A stretch of DNA of 64,000 nt from a virus. The notes below the pieces were generated by a model. The model was not told the origin of the DNA. It ran no database searches and saw nothing but the letters and a program-made list of their open reading frames with translations. The translations under genes and the position numbers were made by a program. The DNA is taken from positions 1-64,000 of IMG/VR virus record IMGVR_UViG_3300031885_000004; one strand, written 5' to 3'. Shown here in pieces: positions 12,197 to 40,373 of this stretch (position 1 is its first letter; every line of letters begins with the position of its first letter).

Positions 12197-12204
12197 AGCA
12201 GGTT

Positions 12205-12289: not shown

Positions 12290-12290
12290 G

Positions 12291-12633: not shown

Positions 12634-12635
12634 CT

Positions 12636-16766: not shown

Positions 16767-17261
16767 CTAAACCTCAGCATGGGCGCGAGCACAACCGGAA
16801 TCGGCATCAATGTTCTCACCGAGGTTATTTCCTTTTATTGCGCCAAATATAGCCCGTGCCACTACCCTGTCTTTTTCCTTTTCCTCTTCTGGCAATTGCG
16901 CATATGTTTTTTGTGCTAAACCAAATCTCTTTTCTTTTTTAGCTTGTGGTGTTGGCACATCAAGAGATAGTTCGCCTTTATAGTCGGCCATCGCCGTCTT
17001 ATTCCATCCATCATGAATTGCACTAGCTATACTTTCAATATCGTCTTCACCAGCGCTAATCACTTTTGAAGCTTCTCTTGCTGATTCAACATTGGCCAAC
17101 CAACCAAAATTATTACCAGGTGTACTACGCCCATAATGGTACGCATCATCTAGTGCTTTGTCGCTTATTTCTGCTAATTTATCAATTGAAAAGGTTTCAG
17201 ATTCATTTATTACATCAGGATCTTCGGTTATTAACCTAGCAATTTTATTAACAAGATCCAC
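16767..17261 (-). CDS. ITEDPD-leader protein with RyR-like domain
   Basis: NKIARLITEDPD; AIHDGW...YAQLPEEEKEKDR is a RyR-domain-like pattern; probable GTG start at 17261. Confidence 0.65.
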   Translation of the reverse strand: MDLVNKIARLITEDPDVINESETFSIDKLAEISDKALDDAYHYGRSTPGNNFGWLANVESAREASKVISAGEDDIESIASAIHDGWNKTAMADYKGELSLDVPTPQAKKEKRFGLAQKTYAQLPEEEKEKDRVVARAIFGAIKGNNLGENIDADSGCARAHAEV

Positions 17262-17423
17262 GATGCGCCTCAGTTCATTAGAAAATCCTAAATCCAAGCT
17301 GTTTAGCTAGTTTGATGGATTTTGAACTGGCGTGCATCCCTGACAGCATAACCTCACCAGTCCCACGTACAATATACCTGTTCCAGCCACCAGCGCCATA
17401 AATCGTCAAAGCAATTGTGTCAT

Positions 17424-17933
17424 CTAGATCTGGTGGTTTATATTTGGATATTCTGGATCTGGCTGCCATTCTTTAAATTCTCGTTGTTTCCTTTGCACCT
17501 CTTTTAGAGCACCTGGGACAGAATATTCATCTGGTCGTTCAAACTGACGATCAAGCCAACCTTCTCCCTCTATCTCAGCCATTGCTAGTAATGTATCGTC
17601 ATAGTGCGTCAACAAATTCCGTGGCCCAGTTACATCTGCTTGAATGTCTGGGTCTTCGGTTATTAACCTGGCAATTTTATTTAAATCGCTTCTTTTAGCA
17701 TAAGGTTGTGCGATCCGCTTATCTATGGCGTCTCCAATCTTAACCATCCCACTACCACCGCACATACCGCACACTTCACCAATACCTAAGATTGAGCTCT
17801 GACCACTCTTAAGTATTGATTCATCGGTGCCATGGATTTGAATAATTGTTTGGAATTCCGCATCCTTGGCTGGGATGGCAACTTCAATAATCACAAAAGT
17901 CAAATCATCAATGGCTTCGGTAAGCAATCTCAT
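17424..17933 (-). CDS. protein with DnaJ-type Zn-knuckle segment and internal ITEDPD motif
   Basis: CGMCGGSG; NKIARLITEDPD at ~17643-17684. Confidence 0.6.
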   Translation of the reverse strand: MRLLTEAIDDLTFVIIEVAIPAKDAEFQTIIQIHGTDESILKSGQSSILGIGEVCGMCGGSGMVKIGDAIDKRIAQPYAKRSDLNKIARLITEDPDIQADVTGPRNLLTHYDDTLLAMAEIEGEGWLDRQFERPDEYSVPGALKEVQRKQREFKEWQPDPEYPNINHQI

Positions 17934-19088
17934 TTAACGGCTCCCATAGAGTCTAATGAACTCTTTATTAAATTCTTCACCCTCATTTTTAAAAGCATCA
18001 TCAAGCAACTCGCATGCAGCCCCAACACTATAACCTTTTTCAAGCAAATCTTGCCTATACTTGTCTTTCCTATCCTGCATATCTTTACCCCAACCATCAA
18101 GTTTATCCACACATTCCGGCTCTGCACCCCTGGCCGCATGATATTGTTCTGATCGTTCTATATTCGTTTGATCTTCATCTTCGTCTTCGTGTGGATTATC
18201 AACAAAAATGTTCTCATCCCTTGATTGATTAAATTTTATGGTTTCTTGGCCATGTGATCTTAATAATTGATTAATTCTAATTCGAATGTTTTCTCCAACT
18301 AAATCCCAAAAATCTGATGGGGTTTCAGCATTAAATTTTGCATTTAGCGCCTGCAATACTTCCTCAGCAGCTGGTTCTGATGGCAAACCAGTTTCACCTG
18401 GTTTTACCATATAAGCCAAAACTGATCCATCGTGGTGTGTTGTGCCAAATAATTTGTCTATTGCGATTATTTTCTGTTGAACGGTTCCCCTAAGCAAGTG
18501 TGGTAGAATTTTCTTATAATTATTCCACATTGTATACCACACACCAGAAGCACTAGTAACAGTGCCCCCGTATCGCACTTTCTCGGTTGCTCTATATACC
18601 TTCCAAATACTATCTATGTCCTCAACCGATAATTCATCTGCTATACTCTCCTGAGTACCAGCCCATTCATTGACGTCGCCATTCGGGTATCTAAAAATAT
18701 AACCAGGAAGTTTGGTCCGGTCGGATTTCCCACCAGGTATGACACCTTCTCTCTTATAAGCTTTAAACAATTTGTCCCACGATGATGCAAGACCACCACT
18801 AGCAATCCAAAAATCTTTGTCTGGAAACACATCAATGTCTTCAACTTGCAGCATTACTCTAGCGCCAATTTGCCTATGAAATTGGAAGGCCAAGTCTTGT
18901 GCTAACTGATTTATTTCTGGTTCAAAATATTCAGAAATACCCTTGTCATATGCTTCTGCTCCAGCAATTGCATAAAAATCATAGATATTGTGAGCACTAA
19001 TCCATTCGACCAGCAATGCTGGAACATCTGGGTCTTCAGTTATCAATCTGGCTATATATTTAGGATCAACCAATTCAATTCTATTCAA
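17934..19088 (-). CDS. ITEDPD-leader protein, unknown function
   Basis: 384 aa; DPKYIARLITEDPD near the N-terminus. Confidence 0.75.
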   Translation of the reverse strand: MNRIELVDPKYIARLITEDPDVPALLVEWISAHNIYDFYAIAGAEAYDKGISEYFEPEINQLAQDLAFQFHRQIGARVMLQVEDIDVFPDKDFWIASGGLASSWDKLFKAYKREGVIPGGKSDRTKLPGYIFRYPNGDVNEWAGTQESIADELSVEDIDSIWKVYRATEKVRYGGTVTSASGVWYTMWNNYKKILPHLLRGTVQQKIIAIDKLFGTTHHDGSVLAYMVKPGETGLPSEPAAEEVLQALNAKFNAETPSDFWDLVGENIRIRINQLLRSHGQETIKFNQSRDENIFVDNPHEDEDEDQTNIERSEQYHAARGAEPECVDKLDGWGKDMQDRKDKYRQDLLEKGYSVGAACELLDDAFKNEGEEFNKEFIRLYGSR

Positions 19089-19265
19089 TACACCTAAAAT
19101 ATGTTTGAAAAACCAAAAATAACACGGAGGAAATTTTTATTGTGCTTAGTTTTTTAATAATATATTGTTCATATAACCATTCCTTGGAAACCATAATTTA
19201 CCACCTCAAATAGCATCCATTATGTCTCATAGTTTTACATCTTACATTTGATGTTGGTATATAGA

Positions 19266-19291
19266 AAGAGGGAGCCAAATGGCTCCCTCTT
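19266..19291 (-). terminator. intrinsic terminator-like hairpin
   Basis: aagagggagcca-aa-tggctccctctt downstream of the 19392..19784 gene. Confidence 0.65.
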
Positions 19292-19348
19292 GTTGTGTAG
19301 GCCCAGATTGCCCATACCCATAACCATCGCAACCAAGACCGCCAGCCA

Positions 19349-19378
19349 GAGATGGGGGAGGTCTCCCTCCCCCATCTC
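19349..19378. other. perfect 13-bp hairpin
   Basis: gagatgggggagg-tctc-cctcccccatctc just after the stop of 19392..19784. Confidence 0.6.
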
Positions 19379-19391
19379 AGCCGTTGGGTGG

Positions 19392-19784
19392 TTAGCGATA
19401 GTTGGTGTTCGTGAGCAGATCCTGGGTGTTCTTGAAGAGGTCGTCGTGCACGTTGGCCGTAGACTTCTCGAGCATCTTGTCCTGCCCGATGACCACTGGG
19501 AAGTTGAGCCCAGCGATATTTTCCACAGCCGTCGAGAAAGGCACCACCGGCCTGAGGTAGCGGACCACAGGCAGCCCACGCCGATTAGAAGTAAGGTTCG
19601 TCTGCACGATGTTCGCGTCCCCATCGAAGGTACTGATGATCTGAGTCTCACGTCCAGGAATGGCCATCACGAGAGGCCGCATGCGGTTGCACATGGCCTT
19701 GACGTTCTCGTGGCGAATCATCTGCCTGAACGACCGCACCCTTTGAAAAACCTTGATGTCCACGTTTGCTGGCTGACTGGCCAT
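19392..19784 (-). CDS. hypothetical protein, probably abundant or structural
   Basis: AAGGAG RBS; GC-rich codon usage distinct from flanks; followed by two hairpins. Confidence 0.7.
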   Translation of the reverse strand: MASQPANVDIKVFQRVRSFRQMIRHENVKAMCNRMRPLVMAIPGRETQIISTFDGDANIVQTNLTSNRRGLPVVRYLRPVVPFSTAVENIAGLNFPVVIGQDKMLEKSTANVHDDLFKNTQDLLTNTNYR

Positions 19785-19848
19785 CTCTCGATCTCCTTAC
19801 TTTCAGTATTTCAAATGCGTCCAACCTTCACTTTATATTTGCGTGAAA

Positions 19849-20385
19849 ATGCGCGTTTGTAATATATGCGGTACGACAGATGACAAGGTGCCGTTCTATA
19901 GGCACCTCAATAGATGTAGACCATGTGCACTTGAAATCATATCTGCGTATAACAAAAAGAGGAACCAAGATCAATCATATAAGAAAGCGAGAAGAGTAAG
20001 GTGGAGCCAATGGCGGTCAAGAAATAATGTCGAGCGCAAAACAAAGCCTAAATCAGCAGAAAAGAGATTTGTGGCAGAACTAGTATCATCAACAAAGAGA
20101 GTCTATATGAAAAAAGATGCCGAATTTGATGTGAGTTCGGAATTCTTTAACCAACTATTAAATGCGCAGAATGGGTTATGCGCATTAAGTGGTGTGCGGC
20201 TTGAAAAAGATCACTCATTATTAGGAGTAAGAATTGATAAGATAGACAACACAAAAGATTTCACAAAGGATAATACTCGCCTAATATGTGAAGGAATTAA
20301 GCGGCTAAAGAAAGATATGTCAGACGATGAAGTTAAGATATTTATTGGCGAACTGAAGCAAGTTATTATGATTAATTTACGATAA
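19849..20385 (+). CDS. degenerate HNH/endonuclease-like protein
   Basis: CNIC...CRPC; QNGLCALSG...IDKIDNTKDFTKDN. Confidence 0.6.
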   Translation: MRVCNICGTTDDKVPFYRHLNRCRPCALEIISAYNKKRNQDQSYKKARRVRWSQWRSRNNVERKTKPKSAEKRFVAELVSSTKRVYMKKDAEFDVSSEFFNQLLNAQNGLCALSGVRLEKDHSLLGVRIDKIDNTKDFTKDNTRLICEGIKRLKKDMSDDEVKIFIGELKQVIMINLR

Positions 20386-21355
20386 ACTGCGCGTTTCTGT
20401 ACTTATCGCTATATGGATCTTTAATTATACCGCTTTTTATGATGTGAATAATTTCTTTAATTCCATCATCGACATCAACGATGGTGTCAAACCCCGCACA
20501 TTTAATCTTAGCAAACGATACTGTTATGTCTCTCATGTCTCCGCCAAACGATAAGTCCTTGTATTCAACTTCAACATTAATTATAGACTTGATCTTGGTT
20601 ATAACTTGCTCTTTAGATAGATTATTTGAGTCTGATCCGACGTTATATATCTGACCATCGAATTTGTTAGATGGCCACTCGAGAACCATAGCTATGGCTC
20701 TAATAATATCAAATATGTGGCAAAATGATCTCCTATAGTCACGTTGATATATTGTTATCTTGCCTTTGGTTATTGCGTCCAATACAAATTGATTGATTAT
20801 GAGATCAAATCTGGTCCTTGGCGATGTGCCAAACAATGTGGCAAACCTAAATATTAGTGGTTTGCATATGTCATCCTTATGGTCTAGTAAGAATCTCTCC
20901 GCTTCAATTTTGGTTTCCGCGTAGAGTGATTGCGGGTTTAATGGCGACTCCTCAGTCACTGGCGAGTTATCTAATGATAACCCATAATTGCTATATGTGG
21001 ATGCGAATATGATCCTTGGCACCATTGACTCGCAAGCAGCCCCATAAACTCTCTTTGTACCATCAACATTATATGCTCTTGCAACTTGGCTACCAACCTG
21101 TTGGCAAATCGGGAAGCCAACTAGAGCCGCTAGATGGATAACTACATCGGCATCTGAGAAGGCTGAGGCTAAATCTGCTTCGAGAATATCTTCAGCTATC
21201 ATGTTGAATCTACTGCCGAAGCACACGTAAGGCAGCATGTGCTCGCCGCCAAACATCATTTTGTCTATAATCGTAACATCATGACCAGCACATAACAGAA
21301 ACCCAGTAAGTTTAGATCCAATGTATCCAGCTCCACCAGTTATAACTATATTCAT
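20372..21355 (-). CDS. NAD-dependent nucleotide-sugar epimerase/dehydratase
   Basis: TGGAGYIG; HLAA; YAETK (YxxxK). Confidence 0.92.
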   Translation of the reverse strand: MNIVITGGAGYIGSKLTGFLLCAGHDVTIIDKMMFGGEHMLPYVCFGSRFNMIAEDILEADLASAFSDADVVIHLAALVGFPICQQVGSQVARAYNVDGTKRVYGAACESMVPRIIFASTYSNYGLSLDNSPVTEESPLNPQSLYAETKIEAERFLLDHKDDICKPLIFRFATLFGTSPRTRFDLIINQFVLDAITKGKITIYQRDYRRSFCHIFDIIRAIAMVLEWPSNKFDGQIYNVGSDSNNLSKEQVITKIKSIINVEVEYKDLSFGGDMRDITVSFAKIKCAGFDTIVDVDDGIKEIIHIIKSGIIKDPYSDKYRNAQFIVN

Positions 21356-21364
21356 GATATAATC

Positions 21365-22615
21365 CTATCCGCAAACAATCATTTCATCTAATTGTGCGCC
21401 GGTCCCAACATATATTAGCTCGGCTTTAGTTTCACGCAAGACTGGGATTATATTTTCATCGGCCCACATCGCGAATTTGTTAGTTACAATGTTGTTTTGG
21501 TGTGGGCGCATTAAAGATCCAGTTAGCCTGCCATGTTTACCAGTCATTTCATAGTCAACATAATTTGCAAAATTAACCGATATAAATGTCTTCCCAAGCG
21601 TCGAGTTATACCTAATAGCTTGTATTAGATTCTCTTTACTAAATGTAAAGACTCTCCTTGGTAACTTGGTCACTGATGTCATTTCGATTATTGGTATTGG
21701 CGATCCGCTAGATTTCGTAACATCATCCCACGATATTTCCCTTTGGTCGCCATAACCAGGTCCAGAGTCACCGTGATATATCGTGACTTTCCTACCAGTT
21801 TGATTATATCTCTGCGTTTCTTCCCAGGTTAAATGCTTCCCAGATTCGTCAAGATACTTATTGCTATTAATTCTGATTGGGAATGTCCTGCAATTAAGAA
21901 CCACATTACCGGCATATCTGACAGGAAGCATCATATCATCAAACCCAGCAGCCACAGTAACATTCCTAGATGTACAATGCGGGTACATCGGTCCCATTAG
22001 ACTTAACTGAAACCCCTGTGCTATCTCAAGAAGGCCAGACTGACCACGGTCGAGCCTGGCCATTATCTCTTCCGATGTGTCGCAAATAAATTCTTTGAGT
22101 GATTCAATATTCTTGGCAATCAGCACGTCGTCGCGTCTTAATACTCTCCTCGCCCTACATGCTCCAACTCCGTGACAGGTCGATCCAGCCTTCATTGTTC
22201 CTTCGTGCTTGGTCGGCTTGCCATCAAAGTCGACTTCGCCTCTCTCGAATGCAGAGTCTTTATCTTGAATTATGGTGGCAAGGGGGTGCATCCCTAAGCG
22301 TTTGGGTTTAATGTTGTTCTCTTCGATCTCCCTGAAGAATGCCTTAAGTTCTATTGACGATCCTGGTCCAATATACATCTTTTCATATTGGTCTAAATAC
22401 GCGCAACTGTTAAGTGTTTGGTAGAAATAAGCCTTCCCAGGAAATCTAACCCAGTGACCTGCTTGAGCCGAAAAAGCGTTACAGCAGAATTGCCAGTTGT
22501 CGGCGTATTCGCACATGAACGAAGCAACCTTGCCTTTGCCAGAGCTCCCGGCGCTTGCGTCCATACAGATCGTCAACTTGCCTGGCTCAAAAACTTTATT
22601 TGTGTCGAAGCGCAT
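21365..22615 (-). CDS. purZ: adenylosuccinate synthase homologue with PurZ-type residues
   Basis: GSSGKGK (Ser at the PurA Asp13 position), EIAQGFQL, YPHCTSR, TSVTKLPRRV, NFAN; start MRFDTN after AAAGGAG. Confidence 0.72.
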   Translation of the reverse strand: MRFDTNKVFEPGKLTICMDASAGSSGKGKVASFMCEYADNWQFCCNAFSAQAGHWVRFPGKAYFYQTLNSCAYLDQYEKMYIGPGSSIELKAFFREIEENNIKPKRLGMHPLATIIQDKDSAFERGEVDFDGKPTKHEGTMKAGSTCHGVGACRARRVLRRDDVLIAKNIESLKEFICDTSEEIMARLDRGQSGLLEIAQGFQLSLMGPMYPHCTSRNVTVAAGFDDMMLPVRYAGNVVLNCRTFPIRINSNKYLDESGKHLTWEETQRYNQTGRKVTIYHGDSGPGYGDQREISWDDVTKSSGSPIPIIEMTSVTKLPRRVFTFSKENLIQAIRYNSTLGKTFISVNFANYVDYEMTGKHGRLTGSLMRPHQNNIVTNKFAMWADENIIPVLRETKAELIYVGTGAQLDEMIVCG

Positions 22616-22628
22616 GATATCTCCTTTA

Positions 22629-23309
22629 TCACTTAGCGGCATTAACCGCTTTGGCTGCCAATTCACCGGTTATGTGGAGGGCTTGTTGTAGTGTTACATC
22701 AAACACTAGTCTATTGTCGATTTTTAGTAGCTCATCAATCATGGTCGCGTCTATATTACCAGACACCTTTAGTGGTCTAGCTGTCATGCTTCGAATTCTC
22801 TCGATAGCTATTGCATGTTCTTTGGCCCCAACATTAGGGATAACAAGGTGCTGATCAATTCTAATCATGTGTGGTGGATATTTGTCGCATGATTTGGTGA
22901 AATTGTCGATTTCTTCTTTGGTTCTTGTATAATACCCGAACACATACCTAAGTTCAATAAGAGGATTAACCCTTCTCATTAATTCACCAATAGCTTTGAC
23001 CTCATTAGATGTTTCGATTTGAGTTTTTTTACTGGTCAGTAATATATCAATGCCCTCAACCCGAAGGGTCATTGGGTTGATCGTCTTAAGCTTATCTGTT
23101 GCGAAATTCTTCCCGTCTGGAAAGTCAATGGCTGCTATTAATTTAAACTGCCCTCCTTTGGTCGATCTGTCGGTTAACATCATTGGGGTAAATTCTGGAG
23201 CAATAACAACAGCTGGGCATCTATATTTCACGGCAAAATTGGTGACTGCATTGTGATCGACGTCTGGTTTTAACATGTTGATTTCTAGGTGTGATGTAAT
23301 ATTAAACAT
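22629..23309 (-). CDS. divergent DeoC-like (deoxyribose-phosphate aldolase) TIM barrel
   Basis: LKPD, AIDFPDG, IDI, LKVSG pattern; the Schiff-base Lys position appears to be Arg. Confidence 0.6.
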   Translation of the reverse strand: MFNITSHLEINMLKPDVDHNAVTNFAVKYRCPAVVIAPEFTPMMLTDRSTKGGQFKLIAAIDFPDGKNFATDKLKTINPMTLRVEGIDILLTSKKTQIETSNEVKAIGELMRRVNPLIELRYVFGYYTRTKEEIDNFTKSCDKYPPHMIRIDQHLVIPNVGAKEHAIAIERIRSMTARPLKVSGNIDATMIDELLKIDNRLVFDVTLQQALHITGELAAKAVNAAK

Positions 23310-23925
23310 TGTTTCCTCCGTTCATTCGCTCTAGATCTTCTCGACGCCACGTTAGGAAAATCCATTTGACTGGGTCTAGTTTAATTAACCCTTTATCTAT
23401 CTTTAAAACATGCTTTAATAGACTATCCCAGTCTTTGAAGAAAACGTTGCTATAATCATCGGCTGTTGATGCCGCGCCCAATATCCATGTTGAAGGAATT
23501 CCGTCTGGGCAACAAAACAACACTGGTTTGCCTTCATATATGGCGTCGTATACCTCCTCACAAGTCCCAAAAGTTGGTTTGATTGGCAAATAGCATATAA
23601 CCCAATCCACAGCACTAACAATTCTCAAGCATACTTTACGCATATAAGCATTAGCCGTGAATACATCGCGCACATTGATGGTGGTGAAGTTGTCCTCACC
23701 ACATATTGTCTTAGCAATTGCGGGGCCGTCCCGCAGAACCTCCCTATACACAGCAGGATTAATGCGACATGATGATGGGAACCATTTTGGCTTGATTAAT
23801 GGATCATATACTTTTATCCCAATCGCCGATAATTTAATGGCCAGCTCGTTTCTCCAAGAGCTGGCCATTAAATCGTGTTCAACTGGCCCTGCAAGATAGC
23901 AGGTGGTGTTGTGTAGTATGCTCAT
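23302..23925 (-). CDS. nucleoside 2-deoxyribosyltransferase / nucleotide N-hydrolase-like protein
   Basis: YLAGP...WR...YDP...GTCEEV...KPV. Confidence 0.72.
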   Translation of the reverse strand: MSILHNTTCYLAGPVEHDLMASSWRNELAIKLSAIGIKVYDPLIKPKWFPSSCRINPAVYREVLRDGPAIAKTICGEDNFTTINVRDVFTANAYMRKVCLRIVSAVDWVICYLPIKPTFGTCEEVYDAIYEGKPVLFCCPDGIPSTWILGAASTADDYSNVFFKDWDSLLKHVLKIDKGLIKLDPVKWIFLTWRREDLERMNGGNNV

Positions 23926-23956
23926 GTGCAGTCAAATACGACCGCGCATGCATAAA

Positions 23957-24451: not shown

Positions 24452-24472
24452 GACTACCTCCTGTTTTACTAA

Positions 24473-25489
24473 TTATTTTTGCGCCTCAGTTTCCTTTTTG
24501 GTCAACAGTTCATTGGCTCGATTCAAAATAACATCTACCGCTCCAATTTGATCTAAATTTTCAAAGCTCGAGACAAATTTAAACTTATTGTGTGATGAGC
24601 AGAATGTAAATCTCGCTAACTCCTCTGGCTTAAGGGTGCTAATAGCATAATCGTAATGCTCAGCTTCTTTTTCAAATCGTTTAATTCTATTCTCATTTGA
24701 TACGTCTGGATTCTGTCCATACCTGTGCAATTTGCCATCAACTGCACTCATGTCACATCCGAATATATATGATTTTTCATACCCCATCCACAATGCGACT
24801 TGCATCGAGGCGTACGTCGTTGATCGCCCAATATGGAATCCTCTAGTTAGGTCGCGTGAGAACCCCTTACCAGCCATCGTCTTAACCATAATTTGATTTG
24901 GATGTGTGGCCCTAACCGAAGATGCGTTAATAATTGTTCCTTGGTAGCTAGACCAAAATTCTTGATTTCTATTGTATTGTGATTGATCACAGAATATCCA
25001 ATATTTGCTTGGCCAGACTCTTAACTCTGGTTTATTGATGCACATAATGTCTATTTTAACGTGCCCAAGCAACTTATCAAGAGGAGCTTGATTGATAGAT
25101 GGCCCACATGCTAAGATAACCAAAATTCTGCTATGCCCAATCCCTCGTAGGTTTCTTATCTTATCTAAGTGCTTCCCGAGAAGCGCGTCCTGTGCTTTAC
25201 GAAGATGACTTGGGCGCACCTGAGTTAGGGTTCTCTCTTTTGTCTTAGGTCTTATTATTGAAACTTGATTTGGTATCACAGACGATCTTGGTTTGGTGAT
25301 GGTTGGCGCCAATGATGACTTTGGCGGCGTTCTTATAATGACGTGCTGCTGCGGTTTTACTGCTGGCACCCTATTATAAACTGTAGGTATTTTGACAGCT
25401 CCCTTTGGATGTAGTGAAATTGATTGTGATATGGACGATACTTTTATAATTCTGACTGGTTTGAATATTGGATTAACTTTTAAATTCAT
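24473..25489 (-). CDS. DUF115/MAF-like glycosyltransferase-fold protein
   Basis: ILACGPSIN...WMGYEKSYIFGCDM. Confidence 0.65.
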   Translation of the reverse strand: MNLKVNPIFKPVRIIKVSSISQSISLHPKGAVKIPTVYNRVPAVKPQQHVIIRTPPKSSLAPTITKPRSSVIPNQVSIIRPKTKERTLTQVRPSHLRKAQDALLGKHLDKIRNLRGIGHSRILVILACGPSINQAPLDKLLGHVKIDIMCINKPELRVWPSKYWIFCDQSQYNRNQEFWSSYQGTIINASSVRATHPNQIMVKTMAGKGFSRDLTRGFHIGRSTTYASMQVALWMGYEKSYIFGCDMSAVDGKLHRYGQNPDVSNENRIKRFEKEAEHYDYAISTLKPEELARFTFCSSHNKFKFVSSFENLDQIGAVDVILNRANELLTKKETEAQK

Positions 25490-25511
25490 ATCATATATAT
25501 TTTTGAATATG

Positions 25512-25949: not shown

Positions 25950-26020
25950 CTCCTAAATATTGTTAAAATACATGGCAATATTAAAAATGCATTATATCAT
26001 CTAAGAGGGAGGGAAACAAG

Positions 26021-27613: not shown

Positions 27614-27632
27614 ATTAGCGTTTGAGGTGAAC

Positions 27633-28516: not shown

Positions 28517-28517
28517 A

Positions 28518-30674
28518 TTATATATTTGATTCTATGTAAGAAAAGGTTCCTCTCTTCCTAACTGATATCTTAGATGGGAACGCGTCAAGAAGATCGGTCT
28601 TATGGCTTATTATCATAATCGTACTTGGTTTAGGACGCGAGTCTAAATTACCACAGAAATCGTTCATAATAACTTCTGTGAATGATTCGACACCTCTACT
28701 ATCCAACGCCCCATCAACTTCATCTAAGACCATTATATTGCATTGCTGCCCATACATATTTATAAATAAATCGTGCAACGCAAACATCATTGCCATATCA
28801 ATCCGTTTTCTCTCACCACCAGAGCATAGATCATAATCCCACTTTGACGGTAACACCGATAATGTTGGTGTAAACTCTATCCCAAAATCGCAACTAAATG
28901 CTTCCAAATAATACTGAATCCTTCTATTTAGAATTGGCATCATGTTCATTAGCACAAACTGCTTTATCTTGTTCCTATCTCCATATGCCGACTTGATATA
29001 AGATAGATGCTCAAACAACATATTAAATTTCAGTCTAGTAGCATCAGACTCACCAATTTTCTTGGAAATACCAGCAATCTGTGATTTTATTAGATCAATC
29101 GTTCCACAATGTGGGTTAGCCTCAATAGATAACGAATCAACTTGTGTCTTAAGATTTAATATTGATTGATCCAACAAATCAGCCAGAGACTTTAATCTCA
29201 TTGCGCTATCTATCGTAATTGTCGGCGTTGATTGCCTAGCCTGCTCGGCAACTTTGCGTAGCATATCATCTATAGCAATGAGGTCAGCCTCATATTTGAT
29301 GATGTCAGATGATAGCCTATTATTTTCGCTAGTCGTATGCTCAATATCATCTAGCATCATTTGAATTGACGAATTAATTTTAATTGCATCTTCAATCGAC
29401 GCTATTTTGGGTATTGGAGGGAGCTTTAATATTAAATCTTCATGGAATTTAATATCTGATGCGATAGATTCTATTTCAATTTTAAGCTTACTTACATTAT
29501 CAATCATCGGCCCGCACATGTCTATTGCGTGTTCTTTACCTATCTTCTGCTTGCACTTTGGGCAAATTGTACCAGATGCGGCGTCCCAATCTCGAATTGA
29601 CGATTCAATATTTTGTGATGCAACTTCCTTCTCCATCATCTTTCTGCGAAGAACGTTTATTGCGCTGGTGGTGTCAATAATCTTCTTTGACAACTCTGCG
29701 CTAATCACATGTTCCTTTTTCAATTGATCAATATCGTATTTCTTTCCACCATTAACTTTAGAGACGCATTTGGCTATTCTGTCGTTATTTGAATTTATCT
29801 TCTCTCTATTTTGTATTATTGAGGTCTTTATAGCTGATTCTTTACGCTGATATTCCTTAACCTTATCGTCTATCTTACATATTGCGTCCCACCTTATCTT
29901 TAGACGCTCTATATCCGGCACGTCTATCGAATTACGCTCTTTTTTCTTGTTAACTATCTGTTTTTCAAACTCTTCTATTTTAATAGATCTAGTCTTATCA
30001 TATTCATCCTTCAAAGCCACTGTTCTCAACAATTGATCATTTAATCTAGTTAGTTCTGCCTCATAAGCAGATAGACTAATTGAACATTTGGTAGCGGCCT
30101 GCTCAGTTTTTTCAGTTTTAGACTTGGCAACAGAAGCCCACAGATTAAGTCTATCAAGATTAAGCAATCTCTCCAAAGCAGCTCTACGTTTGGCATCTGC
30201 CATTTCTAGAAATGGCTTAGAAAACTGACCAAAAAATGTACTAGACACGAATATGTCAAAATCAAGACCAAATAAGTCATCAATAAATTGCTGAGTATTG
30301 GTTGTTGTCGATAGCGTTCTATCTTCACCGTTTAGCGATATCGACAGCTCATTCCTTCCTTCCGTTTTCCTGGTCCTGCTAATTTCCCATCCGTCAGTAG
30401 TCTTGATTGTGACGACACAATTTTCACCAGTATCCCAATTTACAATCTTATCGCCAGGCTTATCTTTAGAAAATGTTCTGCCAAATAGGCACCATATTAT
30501 AGCTGTGGTAAGTGCTGATTTTCCACTACCATTACTATCTTGAAATCCATCGCTATCATCTTTATTACCAACGATAAGAATTGGTCCTAAGCCATCGATA
30601 TGCAAATTAGTATCGTAATCACCATACGATAAAAAATTCCTAATTTCCAGATCGCTTATAGTTAGCTTGCCCAT
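28518..30674 (-). CDS. SbcC/Rad50/gp46-like recombination ATPase
   Basis: NFLSY, NGSGKS Walker A, CPKC zinc hook, SGGE signature, LDEVD, ISH. Confidence 0.93.
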   Translation of the reverse strand: MGKLTISDLEIRNFLSYGDYDTNLHIDGLGPILIVGNKDDSDGFQDSNGSGKSALTTAIIWCLFGRTFSKDKPGDKIVNWDTGENCVVTIKTTDGWEISRTRKTEGRNELSISLNGEDRTLSTTTNTQQFIDDLFGLDFDIFVSSTFFGQFSKPFLEMADAKRRAALERLLNLDRLNLWASVAKSKTEKTEQAATKCSISLSAYEAELTRLNDQLLRTVALKDEYDKTRSIKIEEFEKQIVNKKKERNSIDVPDIERLKIRWDAICKIDDKVKEYQRKESAIKTSIIQNREKINSNNDRIAKCVSKVNGGKKYDIDQLKKEHVISAELSKKIIDTTSAINVLRRKMMEKEVASQNIESSIRDWDAASGTICPKCKQKIGKEHAIDMCGPMIDNVSKLKIEIESIASDIKFHEDLILKLPPIPKIASIEDAIKINSSIQMMLDDIEHTTSENNRLSSDIIKYEADLIAIDDMLRKVAEQARQSTPTITIDSAMRLKSLADLLDQSILNLKTQVDSLSIEANPHCGTIDLIKSQIAGISKKIGESDATRLKFNMLFEHLSYIKSAYGDRNKIKQFVLMNMMPILNRRIQYYLEAFSCDFGIEFTPTLSVLPSKWDYDLCSGGERKRIDMAMMFALHDLFINMYGQQCNIMVLDEVDGALDSRGVESFTEVIMNDFCGNLDSRPKPSTIMIISHKTDLLDAFPSKISVRKRGTFSYIESNI

Positions 30675-31738: not shown

Positions 31739-31757
31739 AATGCGGATTAAATACTGG

Positions 31758-33917: not shown

Positions 33918-34504
33918 GGTTTTGGCCTAAATAGGTTTTGCCTACCACGTTCCAAGTTATGTTTGATTATTTTCTTCTTTTGCTTAACAGATATAGGCAT
34001 ATTGTCTGGAATGTGCTCTATAACCGTAATTATTGGTTTAGCATTAATTATGGTGTTATCGACTGAGATTAAGTCAATCGATTGGATCCACGATACAGTT
34101 ATAACTTTGGAAAATCCTTCGAGCAATTTCGGCATATCTATATCATGACTTTCTTCTATTTCTTCTTTTGTATAATCATCACTGGAACATTGATCAATTG
34201 GGCGAGTTACAACATAGGCGCATATTGCCGCCCCAAGTTTTCTTGCTATGTCGATTATCGATTTCCTATGTGAAAGTTTATTATATATCGTTGTATCTAT
34301 TATGATATCTCCTCTAACTATAAAAAATGCAATGAGCTGCTGGAGGATCTCATAGTCGTTGTCTCCGAATCCTATGCTAAAAGCAAGTTCTTCAATAGAT
34401 ATTCTATAAATATTCTTCTTCCCAATTTGCATATATCTAGCAAACGTCGTCTTCCCAGAATTGTGTCCACCACACAATAGGTGAATTATCCTTGGGTTAA
34501 CCAT
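33914..34504 (-). CDS. P-loop kinase (AAA_33-like)
   Basis: GGHNSGKTT; IIDTT; EGF. Confidence 0.7.
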   Translation of the reverse strand: MVNPRIIHLLCGGHNSGKTTFARYMQIGKKNIYRISIEELAFSIGFGDNDYEILQQLIAFFIVRGDIIIDTTIYNKLSHRKSIIDIARKLGAAICAYVVTRPIDQCSSDDYTKEEIEESHDIDMPKLLEGFSKVITVSWIQSIDLISVDNTIINAKPIITVIEHIPDNMPISVKQKKKIIKHNLERGRQNLFRPKP

Positions 34505-34932
34505 AAAATTATATATCGTCGACTTGATCTATAAATATTGAATTCTTCACCCATTCATCGCACGTTATTTTAATTAATTTAATAATCTTCTCAGAATCAA
34601 CATACTCTATTTCCCATAAGTCTCCGCATATCCTACTTGATGTTACCACAACATTTCTCCCTCTGTATACCCATAGCGAGAATGGTAGAATAGGTGTTAT
34701 TGCATCCATAATTAGACACTATATGATTTCTTTTTAATTAAACCACGCATTGAACCAAACATTGTTCGTCTATTATAACATCGTTCGTTATCGTTGATTT
34801 TGGTGCATCCTGAACATAACCTCCTACCAGCCCAGGTCAAGAATGGTTTTTGGCATTTTAGGCATAACATAGTCTTAATGATGCTTCCGTCTGGACCTGA
34901 TGTTTGTGATGTAAGTTTCATTTATCTCAAGC

Positions 34933-35538
34933 CTAAAAATATAAATTATCTATCATATATCTTACGCCAAAATTATGATCAATATCAGTAATATACCCTA
35001 GGTTTTTGGCTTTATGGAGCCAATCACCCATCATTATTCTATCACGTGGCGACCCAATTTGTTTTTCGACGTGGTTACATAATTTTGTGAAATTGAATGT
35101 ATCAGAAACAAATTGGCGAACAGCCAGATCGCTAAAGTGCCAAAGTGGTGCTGAGATCTTAGAAGTAGTTGCAAGCGCTTGTTTTATTATGATTTGCTCT
35201 TTATCTTTTAGTATATTAAACCACTCTTTCCCTTCTATTGAAATATCTGACTCACGCACTGGTTGCTTTTCATCAATTGGTTCTAATGTACCATCAGGTT
35301 GTTGGACAAATTTCTTCTCTCGCAGAGCGCGAATATATTCTATGGCTTCTGCTCCGGAAAATCCAGCGCGTTCTAGTAACCTGCGCGCATCGTTCAAGCC
35401 CATTTCATTTCCTTCGATCACGAAGCGATATCTTACGATGTCCCCAGTGCTCGTAATGATCACCGATATATAATCTGAATCGTGCACATCAGGATCTTCA
35501 GTGATTAATCTCGCCATATCTTCTGGAATAGTGTTCAT
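34933..35538 (-). CDS. ITEDPD-leader protein
   Basis: PEDMARLITEDPD. Confidence 0.7.
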   Translation of the reverse strand: MNTIPEDMARLITEDPDVHDSDYISVIITSTGDIVRYRFVIEGNEMGLNDARRLLERAGFSGAEAIEYIRALREKKFVQQPDGTLEPIDEKQPVRESDISIEGKEWFNILKDKEQIIIKQALATTSKISAPLWHFSDLAVRQFVSDTFNFTKLCNHVEKQIGSPRDRIMMGDWLHKAKNLGYITDIDHNFGVRYMIDNLYF

Positions 35539-35576
35539 CTTCTAATACACTCCAGATGGCCCATCAAAACAAACAT

Positions 35577-35915
35577 TCATCTTCCAAACCAATGTTCATA
35601 CATTTTATCTAGAAATTCTTGATTTATTGGGTATCCTGACGCATCTCCTATCACAGTATCTTTGTTACAATATGGGCATGGGGCAGTCGGTTCGCGTGGC
35701 TTACCGGTTTTAGGATGTGGATTTTCATTCATCCAATCGGTGACCTCAGATGGTGGGAATATCATACCACAGTAGAAGCACCCACACTGTTTGCTTCTTA
35801 ATATTTCACTTTGATTCGAAATCGAATGGTCATGAGCTTCGATAACATCATATATCCCAGGATCTTGTATGCCCATCTCATCCCAGCCTTCGCCAATTAA
35901 TTGTATTAGTTTCAT
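35577..35915 (-). CDS. small Cys-rich conserved-type protein
   Basis: CGCFYC...CPYC...VIGDASG. Confidence 0.7.
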   Translation of the reverse strand: MKLIQLIGEGWDEMGIQDPGIYDVIEAHDHSISNQSEILRSKQCGCFYCGMIFPPSEVTDWMNENPHPKTGKPREPTAPCPYCNKDTVIGDASGYPINQEFLDKMYEHWFGR

Positions 35916-35960
35916 ATTTAGTCCTATGACTTACGAGTGAGCCTGTCGTCAGTAAGATAT

Positions 35961-36485
35961 TTATGATGCCTGCATGGTGTAATCAAATTCTTCTTCCTCT
36001 GGTGGTATCAGAGCATTAAATTGCCCACGCACGGCATCCTCCGGCACTCTCTTGTCTCCACGCGTTAGTTGTCTAGCTACCAGAGTTTCGACGTCCGCGC
36101 CTGGGAATGTTATTGCAATAGCTACGTATCCAAATTTCTTAGCGTTCTCAATATAAAAAGACCTACGCCTAGGTGTCAGATTGGTATTATCAACATATAT
36201 GTCTTTCCCAGTTTGAATCAATCTTATAAATTCATCATTAGCTTTATTTGAAAATTGCAAGTCTTCAGACGATTTCTTCCAAGCTACAGCATAATCTTTT
36301 GGGTCGTACCAGCGGTGGCGAAGAATATCAAGCGAAAAGACTTCAATATCTGGATTGTGTCTTTTAAGCTTGTTTAGAAATGTACTTTTACCAATACCAG
36401 AAGGTCCAATTGGCATATATAGCATTGGCCTATTTGGTATATCTGGGTCTTCTGTAATAAACCTAGCTATATCTGCTGGTTCCAT
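35961..36485 (-). CDS. ITEDPD-leader P-loop kinase (polynucleotide kinase/AAA_33-like)
   Basis: GPSGIGKST; VDNTN; VPEDAV. Confidence 0.8.
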   Translation of the reverse strand: MEPADIARFITEDPDIPNRPMLYMPIGPSGIGKSTFLNKLKRHNPDIEVFSLDILRHRWYDPKDYAVAWKKSSEDLQFSNKANDEFIRLIQTGKDIYVDNTNLTPRRRSFYIENAKKFGYVAIAITFPGADVETLVARQLTRGDKRVPEDAVRGQFNALIPPEEEEFDYTMQAS

Positions 36486-37003
36486 TAGCTTTTGGTATCC
36501 ATTTTATAAGCATCAGCCATCATTTCGGTCATTCTCTTACAAACATGATCAATAGCTACCATATTTTTACTAGCAGCATATATCTCAGCTCGTTCTATAT
36601 CTGGTATACCAACCATTATTCCTGGTTTATTCATAGCAACAGGATCATCGATGTAGTCGTATAACGTAAGTTTAACGTCGTCGTTTTCATCAACAGACAT
36701 TGCTAAAGTATATTTAGTTAGATATTTATTAAGGGCATCTACCCATGGTTCAACATACCATCCACTCTTATTTTGGTGAAGTGCATTTATTACTTGATCG
36801 CGTATTGATAATGCTATTTCTTTGGTGTCATCAACCAAAGCGGCGATTGGTGTACCAGCACCACCTTTAGGACAACCATATTTATGTCCAGTACCACCCT
36901 GTTTCTTGTCCCACCCACCACACGAATTACAATATTCCTCAGACAGAATGTCTGGGTCTTCAGTTATTAACTTAGCTATGTCTTTAGGATCCTTTGGATT
37001 CAT
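36485..37003 (-). CDS. ITEDPD-leader protein with zinc-finger segment
   Basis: DPKDIAKLITEDPD; CNSC...HKYGC. Confidence 0.7.
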   Translation of the reverse strand: MNPKDPKDIAKLITEDPDILSEEYCNSCGGWDKKQGGTGHKYGCPKGGAGTPIAALVDDTKEIALSIRDQVINALHQNKSGWYVEPWVDALNKYLTKYTLAMSVDENDDVKLTLYDYIDDPVAMNKPGIMVGIPDIERAEIYAASKNMVAIDHVCKRMTEMMADAYKMDTKS

Positions 37004-37023
37004 TAGTTTAGTCCGCCACCAAC

Positions 37024-37869
37024 TTATGCTGGTCCCGCTAATTTATGATTAGCTATTATATTTTTTCGCACATTGGCATTCATGATTAAATATGCGATTC
37101 TCGAGATGATTCGGTCTTCAACAGATGATGTTTTAGATTTAACACTTAGTACGTCCCAAGCATCTCTATTAGTTTGGACATTGATTCCGAATCCGCTTAA
37201 TATGTTAGACATCTGCCCTGCGATAGAGGACGGCATTTTGTCTCTCTCGGTTGGTTCTGGGTCAGTCATTATACTTCTAATTTTGCGATGCTTTGAGCTA
37301 CTATGATTTTTAGACCTCCAATATGGGTCATCGTCATCAGATTCAGGTCTGTCAATTAGGCAGGTAGAGTCTACCTGGCAAGATGATGGGAAAAACTCAA
37401 TTGAGTTCATACTCTTGTTTGAATATATCTCTATGGTGTCTCGAGCGCGAAATTCAGACGTCGCAGCCGCATAACATCTAAGAGCCAATAATATCTGCGA
37501 GTCTGAGGTCATTGCTTGTTTAAGCATATTGGAATATTGGTCGATCCCAACTGAATTTATTGAGTCTTGCACGAATTTAAATAACTTATCATCGGCTATC
37601 AATTCGGCTTGACTTAACGACACACAAATTCTCTCCCTAATTTCGTCAGCTTCCTTTTGCGATAATTTCCTATAAGCGAGTTTATCTAAGTCATCATGCA
37701 TCTGCCATAATTCTGATGGATATAACTTATCGTTCCATATAGCTCCTGGGCATGAGTGTTTTACTTGTTTTTGGGATTCTGGAAGCTGCTGGTGTGAAAC
37801 AACTACTTCAGTGTTTTTGGAAGGTTGGATTACTGGCTGGGCTACATTTCTTTTTGGAAAGTTAATCAT
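37024..37869 (-). CDS. hypothetical protein
   Basis: 281-aa ORF. Confidence 0.65.
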   Translation of the reverse strand: MINFPKRNVAQPVIQPSKNTEVVVSHQQLPESQKQVKHSCPGAIWNDKLYPSELWQMHDDLDKLAYRKLSQKEADEIRERICVSLSQAELIADDKLFKFVQDSINSVGIDQYSNMLKQAMTSDSQILLALRCYAAATSEFRARDTIEIYSNKSMNSIEFFPSSCQVDSTCLIDRPESDDDDPYWRSKNHSSSKHRKIRSIMTDPEPTERDKMPSSIAGQMSNILSGFGINVQTNRDAWDVLSVKSKTSSVEDRIISRIAYLIMNANVRKNIIANHKLAGPA

Positions 37870-38116
37870 ACGCTATTTATTTATAAATATGTCGATCATC
37901 TTTTTGACATCTTCTATTCTGCTGCGGTGCGCGACAATAGTATATTTCCCAAATCTGATGATTATCAAATTTGATATACCAACCATACCTATAGTTTCAT
38001 CTAAATCTTGACAGTACACCATATTGTCGTTGCAATCCGCAGTATGCAGATTATTGCATCTCACTGGGTTACATGGGTCTATAAAGTTAGCATCTTGTGG
38101 ATTCATCATGCACCAT

Positions 38117-38830
38117 TTATACCAAACTATGCCACTTTCCATCCTCGCAATATATATCAATAAGGTGTGGCCAGATTGTGTCTGTGGCATAATAGTCGTT
38201 TGTTGTGTGTTCTATTTCAAAATTATGGTCTAGCCGTGCTCTTAAGAGCACTGCCTGACCTTCATCTGGCGCGAACTGCCATATGTGTTCAGCACTGTTC
38301 ATCCAATAACTTCTTCTTCCTGATGTGCCGTCTGGCCACGTTTCCTGGTCAGTTCCATATGATGGACTATGTGTTAATAAGCCTTGCTTTGCAATCTGCA
38401 GGGCATTTTCTAGATTAGTTATGTGATATACGTGGCGGTTGTCTGATGGAACAGGGCCATCAACTTTCATTGGTTTTGGCACATCTTGATTATCTAATCG
38501 ATCACAAACGGTCTTTATTAAATCTTCAGTATTTCCTTGCTTATATGGATCCCATGGGACCGCAAAACTATCAATTATTTTGTCATCTTTTGATATGTTA
38601 ATTATTATTTCTTTGACGTTTGAGAAATACAGTACGTGCGTTCCAATGTTTGCTATAATGTGTGGGTTGTCTTTCTTACTAACCCATAACACCCTAAAAT
38701 CATGATCGGCAGTCAATCCTATTTCATGTTTAGCGTCGACTTTATATCCAAGATCTTCAAATTCGGACATTAAGAGATCTACGAAGTTAGGTGTGTATCG
38801 TTCATCTTCAAGTAATACAGCTAATTTCAT
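38117..38830 (-). CDS. protein with C-terminal ADP-ribosyltransferase-like domain
   Basis: VYHITNLENALQIAKQGL matches the YHxTxxxNxxxIxxxGL strand-1 motif of ART/Tpt1/DarT-like folds; MKLAVLLE N-terminus. Confidence 0.6.
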   Translation of the reverse strand: MKLAVLLEDERYTPNFVDLLMSEFEDLGYKVDAKHEIGLTADHDFRVLWVSKKDNPHIIANIGTHVLYFSNVKEIIINISKDDKIIDSFAVPWDPYKQGNTEDLIKTVCDRLDNQDVPKPMKVDGPVPSDNRHVYHITNLENALQIAKQGLLTHSPSYGTDQETWPDGTSGRRSYWMNSAEHIWQFAPDEGQAVLLRARLDHNFEIEHTTNDYYATDTIWPHLIDIYCEDGKWHSLV

Positions 38831-38864
38831 CGGTCTGCCCAAGAACTAACACTTCGATCAATTG

Positions 38865-39470
38865 CTAACTATTGTTTTGTGCCGCTTGTAACGCGTTTTT
38901 ATACCACTCGTTCAACTTTGGTAGGTAGGCTTTTTGTTGTTCTCCAGTCATCTGCCCACTTTCCCTCTGCTTTTTAAGTTTTTCTATAGCAGCATGAAAT
39001 TGTTCTTCTACCCAAGCGACATATTGTTTCTTGGCTTGAGATTGAGCTGGTTGTTGAGCTGGTTGTTGAGCTGGTTGTTGAGCTGGTTGTTGAGCTGGTT
39101 GTTGAGCTGGTTGTTGAGCTGGTTGTTGAGCTGGTTGTGTTTTTGCGGCATTCATCGCATCTGCACGGCTTGCATATTTTAATGGACGTTTACAACTATT
39201 ACACGCTAAAGACAATGGTTTATATAATGATCCAATTGGTTTGTGGCAATTACCACAGAATTTTTCTCCAGTGCTTTTGTCTGTGTCGATATATCCCAAG
39301 GATTTTGCTGCCTTTTCTATCCTGTCTTCTTCTCTCATGCCACTCGGATCTTTGGGATCGTGGCCCTTCCCGAAGGTGCGGTCGTCGAGCGTTGCAGTCT
39401 GCTCGTCCTGCTCTTGTGGCACGTCCGGGTCTTCGGTAATCAATTTAGCTATGTCTTTGGGATCGATCAT
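38865..39470 (-). CDS. ITEDPD-leader protein with zinc ribbon and QPAQ repeat
   Basis: MIDPKDIAKLITEDPD; CGNC...CNSC. Confidence 0.7.
   Translation of the reverse strand: MIDPKDIAKLITEDPDVPQEQDEQTATLDDRTFGKGHDPKDPSGMREEDRIEKAAKSLGYIDTDKSTGEKFCGNCHKPIGSLYKPLSLACNSCKRPLKYASRADAMNAAKTQPAQQPAQQPAQQPAQQPAQQPAQQPAQQPAQSQAKKQYVAWVEEQFHAAIEKLKKQRESGQMTGEQQKAYLPKLNEWYKNALQAAQNNS
39042..39137. repeat. 12-bp tandem repeat x8 (QPAQ coding)
   Basis: (ttgagctggttg)8. Confidence 0.95.
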
Positions 39471-39501
39471 TGTATACTCCAAGAGTAAAACGCACCGAGT
39501 T

Positions 39502-39996
39502 TTATTCACCAGAAGGATATGCAACCCAAGCGGCTTGTTCATATCCTTCTGGCCACGCCAACAAAGACTGTATTGTTCTATGCCATCCTTCAATCAGTTC
39601 ATAGCCATCGTTGCGCTTTATCATTATTATCGGTTCTTTTGATGGTCCTGCTTTTATTATTTCTTTTTGCTTTTGATGCCTTTCTGCGTCTCGTGGAACC
39701 AAATCTGGGTTTTCACCTTCAATTCTTCTTTTGAGTTTTTGACGTATTCTAGGAATAAAAATGTCTAAAGTAACGGTTATTGTTTCTAATTTCCATGTCG
39801 AATCAGATAACCATGTTGATTTCCATTCTTTAGCCCATTTTGGATCATCTTTTATTATAGGATATATAAAATCTTTGATGACATAATCCGGAACCTTTGG
39901 GAAGGTGTCTTTTAAATATCCAACCATCGGTTGTCTTAATTCACAAAAGACATCTGGATCTTCAGTGATCAGTTTAGCTATGTCTTTGGGATCCAC
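39502..39996 (-). CDS. ITEDPD-leader ParB/Srx-like protein
   Basis: EPII...YELIEGWHR. Confidence 0.72.
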   Translation of the reverse strand: MDPKDIAKLITEDPDVFCELRQPMVGYLKDTFPKVPDYVIKDFIYPIIKDDPKWAKEWKSTWLSDSTWKLETITVTLDIFIPRIRQKLKRRIEGENPDLVPRDAERHQKQKEIIKAGPSKEPIIMIKRNDGYELIEGWHRTIQSLLAWPEGYEQAAWVAYPSGE

Positions 39997-40373
39997 GTTG
40001 ACGCTTCCTTTATTTGATCGATAGTCGCGATAGTTGCTTTGATTGTCTTTGCACCAATAGTTAATGCCTTTCTTATCCTATGCGTCCCATCTATTAAATC
40101 TCCAGTTTCATCTAATATTATCGGGTAATTAAGATCTGCTCTCGCTTCCCATTCGCTATCTTCTCCAAATTGCCATCCTCTCTTTATAAGATTTTTATAT
40201 AATGATTTGGTGCTGACGAACTTTATAGGATTGTTTTTGGTTATTATCCAAAGTTTTCTGATGTTTATTTCATATAAGCCAGTTTCATCTTCATATGTCT
40301 GCGACCCCTCATCTGATGCCGTTGGCACATCTGGGTCTTCAGTTATTAATTTGGCTATGTCTTTAGGATCCAT
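39978..40373 (-). CDS. ITEDPD-leader ParB/Srx-like protein
   Basis: ADLNYPII...LIDGTHR. Confidence 0.72.
   Translation of the reverse strand: MDPKDIAKLITEDPDVPTASDEGSQTYEDETGLYEINIRKLWIITKNNPIKFVSTKSLYKNLIKRGWQFGEDSEWEARADLNYPIILDETGDLIDGTHRIRKALTIGAKTIKATIATIDQIKEASTWIPKT

Follow-up and report, generated by a model that had tools for sequence, protein, structure and literature searches.

The minus strand of an uncultured virus contig (IMG/VR record IMGVR_UViG_3300031885_000004) encodes a series of otherwise unrelated proteins that share one short peptide, IA(K/R)(L/F)ITEDPD(V/I), referred to hereafter as the tag, and we consider it probable (at roughly 0.55) that this tag is a capsid-targeting propeptide of the kind known from phage T4 (capsid-targeting sequence, CTS), in a new and much expanded form. 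The window analyzed here is the first 64 kb (positions 1–64,000) of the 81.5-kb contig. We observe that the tag, whose positions can be mapped copy by copy, is conserved at the level of the peptide, is spread in modular fashion over ~100 families of attached protein (cargo) and belongs to a clade with T4-type head genes. We infer a course of docking, cleavage, packaging and injection, in which an amphipathic helix (DIA+LITE, with Pro on either side) would attach the protein to the prohead scaffolding core. Cleavage by the S77 prohead protease would follow after LITE and, in roughly half of the proteins, a second time after a phi-x-E four residues on, and the mature cargo would remain in the head and be delivered to the host together with the DNA.

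A shared peptide on unrelated proteins

Copies of the tag were placed from a listing of open reading frames (ORFs) and from motif scans in all six frames. A degenerate DNA pattern for the ITEDPD core matches nine times in the window, always on the minus strand, against 0.00 matches expected from 100 shuffles; the nine copies of the original prediction are thus recovered where it had placed them, including the one (core at 35488) in which Met replaces the first Ile (MARLITEDPD). Its division of these copies into eight N-terminal and one internal holds only given GTG/TTG starts for three genes (17261 GTG, 19073 TTG, and 39996 GTG); the copy at 17646 is truly internal, with no start codon found within 12 codons upstream. 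A tenth copy, MKNDIKYIANVITEDPDV, lies outside the window on the same contig, at the N-terminus of a 319-amino acid (aa) ORF (72070–73029, minus), and, given the same alternative starts, a Met stands 4–7 residues ahead of IA in 9 of the 10 copies. The tagged proteins of the window are listed below, with ITEDPD cores as located by the degenerate pattern.

17211–17261, minus strand (core 17214–17231): tag MDLVNKIARLITEDPDV, then INE (phi-x-E), at the N-terminus (GTG 17261) of ORF 16767–17261, 164 aa, weak RyR match
17643–17675, minus strand (core 17646–17663): internal tag IARLITEDPDI, residues ~87–97 of ORF 17424–17933, 169 aa, which opens MRLLTE and has a CGMCGGSG (CxxCxGxG) zinc-finger module preceding the tag
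19023–19073, minus strand (core 19026–19043): tag (M)VDPKYIARLITEDPDV, at the N-terminus (TTG 19073) of ORF 17934–19073, 379 aa, no assigned function; a homologue (P0077) is likewise tagged, and a CAAACATA motif stands upstream of the ORF at 19100–19107
35485–35538, minus strand (core 35488–35505): tag MNTIPEDMARLITEDPDV, at the N-terminus of ORF 34933–35538, 201 aa, no assigned function
36438–36485, minus strand (core 36441–36458): tag MEPADIARFITEDPDI, at the N-terminus of ORF 35961–36485, 174 aa, P-loop kinase (AAA_33/polynucleotide kinase-like)
36947–37003, minus strand (core 36950–36967): tag MNPKDPKDIAKLITEDPDI, then LSE and a CxxCGG zinc-ribbon adaptor, at the N-terminus of ORF 36485–37003, 172 aa
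39420–39470, minus strand (core 39423–39440): tag MIDPKDIAKLITEDPDV, at the N-terminus of ORF 38865–39470, 201 aa, CxxC zinc ribbon and (QQPA)n repeat
39949–39996, minus strand (core 39952–39969): tag (M)DPKDIAKLITEDPDV, then FCE, at the N-terminus (GTG start) of ORF 39502–39996, 164 aa, EGWHR motif, ParB/Srx-like as a lead only
40326–40373, minus strand (core 40329–40346): tag MDPKDIAKLITEDPDV, at the N-terminus of ORF 39978–40373, 131 aa, DGTHR motif, phrog_17560

Most of this cargo is without recognizable function in Pfam, PHROGs, a PDB sequence search and the Atlas. Among the labels first given to it, that of P-loop kinase stands (ORF 35961–36485; Pfam PF13671, AAA_33, E 1.5e-13; polynucleotide kinase (PNK) phrog_505), and the others are weaker: the RyR match is below cut-off (E 0.019), the ParB/Srx assignment comes from a (D/E)GxHR sequence motif plus a weak Atlas lead in proteins with almost no homologues, and the zinc fingers are CxxC motifs with a weak DZR match. 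ORF 38865–39470 carries eight tandem QQPA(Q) repeats (about 39010–39150), and its weak DUF4106 match is to this low-complexity stretch.

Codon choice beneath the tag varies freely. Synonymous codons differ among the ten copies at all degenerate positions (Ile, Ala, Thr, Asp, and Pro included), with Glu the exception (GAA in 10/10), the closest pairs of copies are identical at 24–26 of 30 nucleotides, and the fraction of identical residues that use the same codon is 0.46, against 0.39 expected from genome codon usage. Since synonymous codons vary between copies, selection acts on the peptide, as had been proposed.

More widely, pattern scans located the tag in 13 IMG/VR contigs and 56 metagenome loci (marine, freshwater, and sediment), and in the latter (locus L052 left out) it is N-terminal in 74 of 81 tagged ORFs. 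A tag profile searched against 1.84 billion representative proteins (E ≤ 0.001) gave 138 matches, 137 with the core, for which the consensus is M-(N/D)-P-(K/E)-(D/E)-I-A-(R/K)-(L/M)-I-T-E-D-P-D-(V/I)-(F/L/I/P)-x-(E/D); within the core, E, D, and P are invariant and I, A, I, and T are at least 96% conserved, and a Met stands at a fixed distance from the core in 76 of 137 clusters. Stripped of the tag, 132 cargo sequences group by BLAST into 100 components, among which few domains are recognizable (RNAP alpha-CTD, HTH, PARP-type ADP-ribosyltransferase, zinc ribbons, cREC receiver, rubrerythrin-like half-domain, and P-loop kinase). With ~100 unrelated cargo groups the tag is not, overall, part of a longer common folded domain, although sub-families do share a further adaptor behind it, either a zinc ribbon or the sequence GWEELGIEDP. 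Contig G004, which is syntenic with the window, places a ten-gene tagged array of its own beside the same kinase, 719-aa protein, gp47, and gp46, with cargo that differs.

Leader anatomy, adaptors, and a second leader

The shared peptide measures 15–19 residues, with a phi-x-E four residues past DPD in 67 of 137 clusters and the GWEELGIEDP module next in 14 of 137. Two kinds of adaptor can be distinguished behind it. The first is a CPxCG zinc ribbon that, together with the tag, is all that a 20-cluster family has in common, the remainder being wholly divergent; ORF 36485–37003 of the window belongs to this family. The second, (D/G)WEELGIEDP(G/F), follows either of two leader types (for example in P0007, P0010, and P0013), and in this contig it stands behind a different leader, MKLIxLxxE, in two proteins without the tag (35577–35915, minus; 77159–77776, plus). 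The GIEDP core of this module resembles ITEDP.

This second leader, M(K/R)(L/I)xx(L/I/V)xE, is found at 18 of 683 ORF N-termini in the fetched loci, against 0.00047 per internal residue, an enrichment of about 56-fold; examples are MKLSVLFE, MKLDLLYE, and MRLSELVE. Its occurrences on the contig are as follows.

35577–35915, minus strand, window: untagged neighbour within the tagged array, leader MKLIQLIGE, then a GWDEMGIQDP module (a module also present behind the ITEDPD tag in 14 other clusters)
40407–41081, plus strand, window: second-leader ORF
17424–17933, minus strand, window: second-leader ORF, also the bearer of the internal tag
64080–64466, contig beyond the window: second-leader ORF
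74349–74870, contig beyond the window: second-leader ORF
77159–77776, contig beyond the window: second-leader ORF

In L058, L082, and L088, paralogous bodies (...DPGxTDLGD) bear either MRLSVISE or an ITEDPD tag followed by ...L(I/L)NE, and the two leaders, both ending in IxE, are therefore interchangeable. Nor is the tag confined to the N-terminus: P0082 and P0021 have tags at both termini, P0051 has three in one protein, and in G004 a ferritin-like/rubrerythrin half-domain protein is tagged at its C-terminus. One ORF (L092:851–2785, plus) consists of tandem ~350-aa units, each headed by the tag, ILNE, and a twin-arginine-like SRRDFLKxMGLGAAK, and may encode a polyprotein whose units would expose a Tat-type signal once cleaved.

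Prohead genes and the placement of tagged genes

Every tag-bearing contig that includes a head module encodes a homologue of Peptidase_S77 (T4 gp21), with PF03420 matches in G001, G002, G003, G005, G008, and G009 that adjoin the genes for scaffold and a gp23-like major capsid protein (MCP). Carrier genomes run to ~350 kb and encode T4-type head proteins (portal, S77 protease, scaffold, and gp23-like capsid protein), and even the closest capsid proteins from cultured phages reach only about 30% identity; the DNA of the window gave no match in the phage collection. CheckV places the 81.5-kb contig at 22% of its genome, implying about 360 kb, and this portion is without a head module, so that the S77 protease and scaffold of this phage are presumed from relatives whose gp46 is 40–49% identical to its own (49% in G004; about 40% in G001, which is 354 kb and 98% complete, and in G002, G003, and G006).

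The tag contains a motif read by the T4 enzyme. T4 gp21 cuts after Glu and acts inside proheads, and it shortens the packaged ADP-ribosyltransferase Alt by six residues at the N-terminus (ITE-6) and by 63 at the C-terminus (LTE-619) (PMC5694885). In the T4 genome the N-terminus of Alt reads MELITE↓LFDED (arrows mark known or presumed cuts), and the LITE of the tag is hence a documented gp21 site; the prohead-protease motif (I/L)-x-E is present, as [IL][TS]E, in all 137 of the 137 profile matches. In T4 the CTS propeptides are 10–19 residues long, targeting is separable from processing, and Asp at the cleavage position blocks processing and leaves targeting (PMC9026906); such propeptides are thought to load diverse proteins in T4-like phages (PMC9026906; PMC3012670). 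The gp23-like MCP of the clade aligns with T4 gp23 and has three candidate sites of this kind: RS-x-(I/L)-(L/F)-E↓D-Q-T-T-T is found in every sequence (119 of 119), V(L/I)xE↓(S/A)KKN in 115 of 120, and an [ILM]TE close to the N-terminus in 76 of 120. Read from sequence, they fit a delta domain processed at several (I/L)xE positions, and with Asp as the residue past the putative cut, as in the tag. The S77 protease of the clade itself opens ...RG(I/L)IAE↓TG. A complex prediction for S77 protease (40-row alignment) and tag (21-row), run without controls, scored 0.01 against a mark of 0.32 and counts neither way.

Two side observations concern these head proteins. In G001 (C1:108463–110049) the S77 protease match falls in two parts ~1.1 kb apart within one 642-aa frame, a split that points to an insertion in the gene, perhaps an intein. 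In the window, ORF 8580–9044 includes a stretch (FTKFALPVIK...LVNVQPM) that looks like the conserved N-arm seen in gp23-type capsid proteins of this clade, the contig being without a full capsid gene.

Clustering of 1,067 ORFs from all fetched loci, many on short contigs, identified as recurrent neighbours of tagged genes those for MCP, portal, TerL, protease, and neck proteins, or else gp46/47 with kinase. In a marine lineage (L069, L035, L036, and L060) the order is 222-aa acidic protein, tagged TAG138, TerL, portal, ~1000-aa acidic protein, tagged TAG93, S77 protease, scaffold, and MCP, with TAG93 beginning directly after the preceding stop codon and TAG138 overlapping it. From T4 gene order, we take the position of TAG93 to correspond to that of the small prohead-core genes 67 and 68. 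In a freshwater lineage (L001, L062, and L067) a tagged 204-aa gene lies directly 3′ of the MCP gene, and a 540-aa acidic protein near this MCP has the tag variant IAAFITDDPDIMNE; in L005, L073, and L099 a tagged zinc-ribbon gene lies within the neck module. A 30-aa ORF made up of the tag and 14 further residues overlaps, in another frame, the start of a gp14-like head-closure gene at L002:6399–6488 (plus); the ORF occurs also in G002 and G003, where it immediately precedes the gp14-like gene, and in 17 contigs. Possible readings of it are a remnant, a peptide in its own right, or a fusion to the neck protein by frameshifting. A second type of setting is seen in the window, G004, L050, and L049, where tagged arrays adjoin recombination genes.

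The original prediction had a portable leader send a swappable set of cargo to the virion and be cut after (I/L)xE. This fits the S77 protease and T4-type head genes, the LITE tetrapeptide and the tagged genes of head and neck operons, and fits also the tags at both termini or between polyprotein units and the exchange with another leader ending in IxE; loading and cleavage themselves are putative.

A very acidic, low-complexity protein of ~1000 aa is conserved between portal and prohead protease (L045:5887–8943, plus; L069:5716–8694, plus). It is a candidate core or scaffold hub with no known counterpart in T4.

Competing readings and known systems

Several observations weigh against a capsid-targeting role. 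The tagged genes of the window sit among genes of replication, recombination, and nucleotide metabolism, and in G001, a complete genome of 354 kb, only one gene bears the tag, at a distance from the head genes; scans for sigma-70-type promoters and terminators near the arrays gave no more than chance predicts and are uninformative on timing. Of the 138 listed proteins (137 tagged), 120 are net acidic, tag-only mini-ORFs of 24–45 aa exist, and two loose variants have ITD/LTD in place of ITE. Every tagged source is metagenomic, no cultured relative having been found, and a literature search by motif strings found no paper that mentions the motif. The invariant D-P-D after the presumed cut, furthermore, exceeds what T4-type cleavage needs: such cleavage requires only (I/L)xE, yet both D-P-D and I-A-(R/K)-L are kept, and a further recognition step is therefore called for.

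It is possible, although we advance this tentatively, that the tag is the address label of a dedicated loading system with a prohead-core receptor of its own, for example the ~1000-aa acidic protein, and with a combinatorial leader grammar. Such a grammar would combine two swappable leaders with an adaptor (zinc ribbon or GWEELGIEDP) and would allow the tag at either terminus or between the units of a polyprotein, and the whole set of injected effectors (the “injectome”) of a ~350-kb phage clade would then be readable from sequence.

The near invariance of ten residues, including a D-P-D that T4-type cleavage does not need, would also suit a linear docking motif for a partner other than the prohead, be it a phage hub (a replication/transcription factory, or the exterior of neck and portal) or a conserved host protein (RNA polymerase, chaperone, or ribosome). 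The occurrence of the tag at N-terminal, C-terminal, and internal positions is in keeping with such docking, as are a cargo rich in DNA/RNA-directed domains (HTH, alpha-CTD, kinase, and ADP-ribosyltransferase) and arrays in the window that adjoin gp46/gp47 and the kinase rather than head genes. We nevertheless judge this rather unlikely, since no non-structural neighbour family recurs (head, neck, and terminase genes do) and since docking alone leaves LITE, the downstream phi-x-E and the swap with an IxE leader unexplained. A host partner is further disfavoured by a scan of 185,579 bacterial and archaeal species (one genome each), which gave four matches only, all internal and by chance, so that no host motif is mimicked; the bacterial matches handled as L052 and L103–L106 are internal stretches of glycoside hydrolase-like or solute-binding-like proteins and were rejected as chance. 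Should the tag bind another hub after all, it would mark an unknown organizing centre of these infections.

Polyprotein-like ORFs with a tag before each unit (L092, L096, P0051, and ORF 17424–17933) and an invariant E-D-P that resembles a precise cleavage site could instead point to a processing or turnover signal for a cytoplasmic protease (a common degron that sets when accessory proteins disappear, or a maturation site that releases polyprotein modules) with no packaging involved. This is improbable: the only protease seen to accompany the tag is the prohead S77 enzyme, prohead-internal in T4, most tagged proteins are single modules from which cleavage would remove just 12–19 residues, and the head-operon context of several tagged genes would be left unexplained.

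That the element acts at the level of nucleic acid or translation (a PeSL-like recombination site, an initiation enhancer, or an RNA motif) with the peptide a by-product is scarcely credible, for despite the near-fixed position at the 5′ end and the clustering of the genes in variable arrays, synonymous sites vary about as codon usage predicts, no upstream cassette is common, C-terminal and internal copies exist, and the amino acids are constant over 137 clusters from marine, freshwater, and sediment sources. A PeSL-type mobile cassette, in which a promoter and stem-loop flank the shuffled genes of T4-type phages, was rejected on the same footing (no shared upstream DNA; third codon positions near codon-usage expectation), and the earlier proposal that cargo is recruited by recombination behind the tag found no support, the tag DNA being no more alike than the peptide requires and no promoter or ribosome-binding-site cassette being common upstream. 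A leader of the ribosomally synthesized and post-translationally modified peptide (RiPP) type with a co-encoded modifying enzyme was likewise discarded; no enzyme family recurs near tagged genes among the 1,067 clustered ORFs, many of them on short contigs.

Returning to the capsid-targeting propeptide that we favour, the closest parallels are the T4 CTS of internal proteins (IPs) IPI, IPII, and IPIII and the gp21-cut propeptides of Alt. Both are short N-terminal propeptides (10–19 residues in T4, 12–19 in the tag) that end in (I/L)xE and are carried by otherwise unrelated, fast-evolving accessory proteins, and some tagged cargo is, like Alt, ADP-ribosyltransferase-like. The tag is not similar to the T4 IP leader itself, having in common only the LITE tetrapeptide, with Alt; because it has its own consensus (MNPKDIARLITEDPDV-phi-x-E, with D-P-D invariant after the presumed cut), it is an analogue or a new variant rather than the same leader. 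It differs also in scale (at least 137 clusters, ~100 cargo families, and ten copies in 81.5 kb) and in its tandem, C-terminal, and inter-unit placement, its zinc-ribbon and GWEELGIEDP adaptors, and the second leader MKLSV(L/I)xE. The 30-aa tag mini-protein had no tblastn match in 50,697 phage records.

The phiKZ-like giant phages (phiKZ, 201phi2-1, and SPN3US) also cut many head-internal proteins after Glu. Their S80 prohead protease removes ejection and inner-body propeptides at (S/A/G)xE, and paralogues share identical N-terminal propeptides with several sites (PMC5694885). The tag system differs in its protease (S77 rather than S80) and site (I/LxE rather than AxE), and in that ~100 unrelated families, not paralogues, have the propeptide in common. 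Encapsulin cargo-loading peptides, short terminal sequences that send diverse cargo into an HK97-fold shell, are comparable by analogy only, being C-terminal, uncleaved, and of other sequence; the EncFtn-like match of the C-terminally tagged ferritin-like protein is below cut-off (17 bits).

A conserved leader on diverse internal proteins, cleaved by gp21, is thus already known from T4 (PMC3012670, PMC5694885, PMC9026906). What is new is the sequence of the tag and how little it varies within an uncultured clade, along with its scale, its placement at either terminus and between polyprotein units, and the adaptors and second leader. If the capsid-targeting reading is true, one 15-residue motif would pick out from raw metagenomes more than 100 families carried in the heads of huge uncultured phages and delivered with the DNA. 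The class of head-delivered proteins includes, in T4, the anti-restriction protein IPI and the RNA polymerase modifier Alt, and the tagged families would form a catalogue of candidate anti-defence and host-takeover effectors. The tag would also offer a natural packaging signal for engineering, and would show a phage lineage enlarging a T4-like trick into a modular system.

A possible regulatory element was seen in several of these phages. The 7-mers within CAAA(A/T/C)ATA are 5–6-fold enriched upstream of ORFs, and the motif stands 10–45 nucleotides ahead of portal, scaffold, sheath, and neck genes, several genes of the window, and some tagged genes (L045, L069, L002, L028, L001, and the window), making this a candidate late-type promoter of the clade. 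Over the whole window the motif is not enriched (20 occurrences where 14 would be expected), and an exact match is absent from the minus strand at 34–42 kb. Occurrences in the window include the following.

19100–19107, minus strand: CAAA(A/T/C)ATA
24474–24481, minus strand: CAAA(A/T/C)ATA
25498–25505, minus strand: CAAA(A/T/C)ATA
28521–28528, minus strand: CAAA(A/T/C)ATA
33958–33965, minus strand: CAAA(A/T/C)ATA
42270–42277, minus strand: CAAA(A/T/C)ATA

The window further carries T4-like gp46/gp47 and a gp55-like gene, recognized by N-terminal motifs, and 25 tRNA genes in an array at 352–12711 with small ORFs in between.

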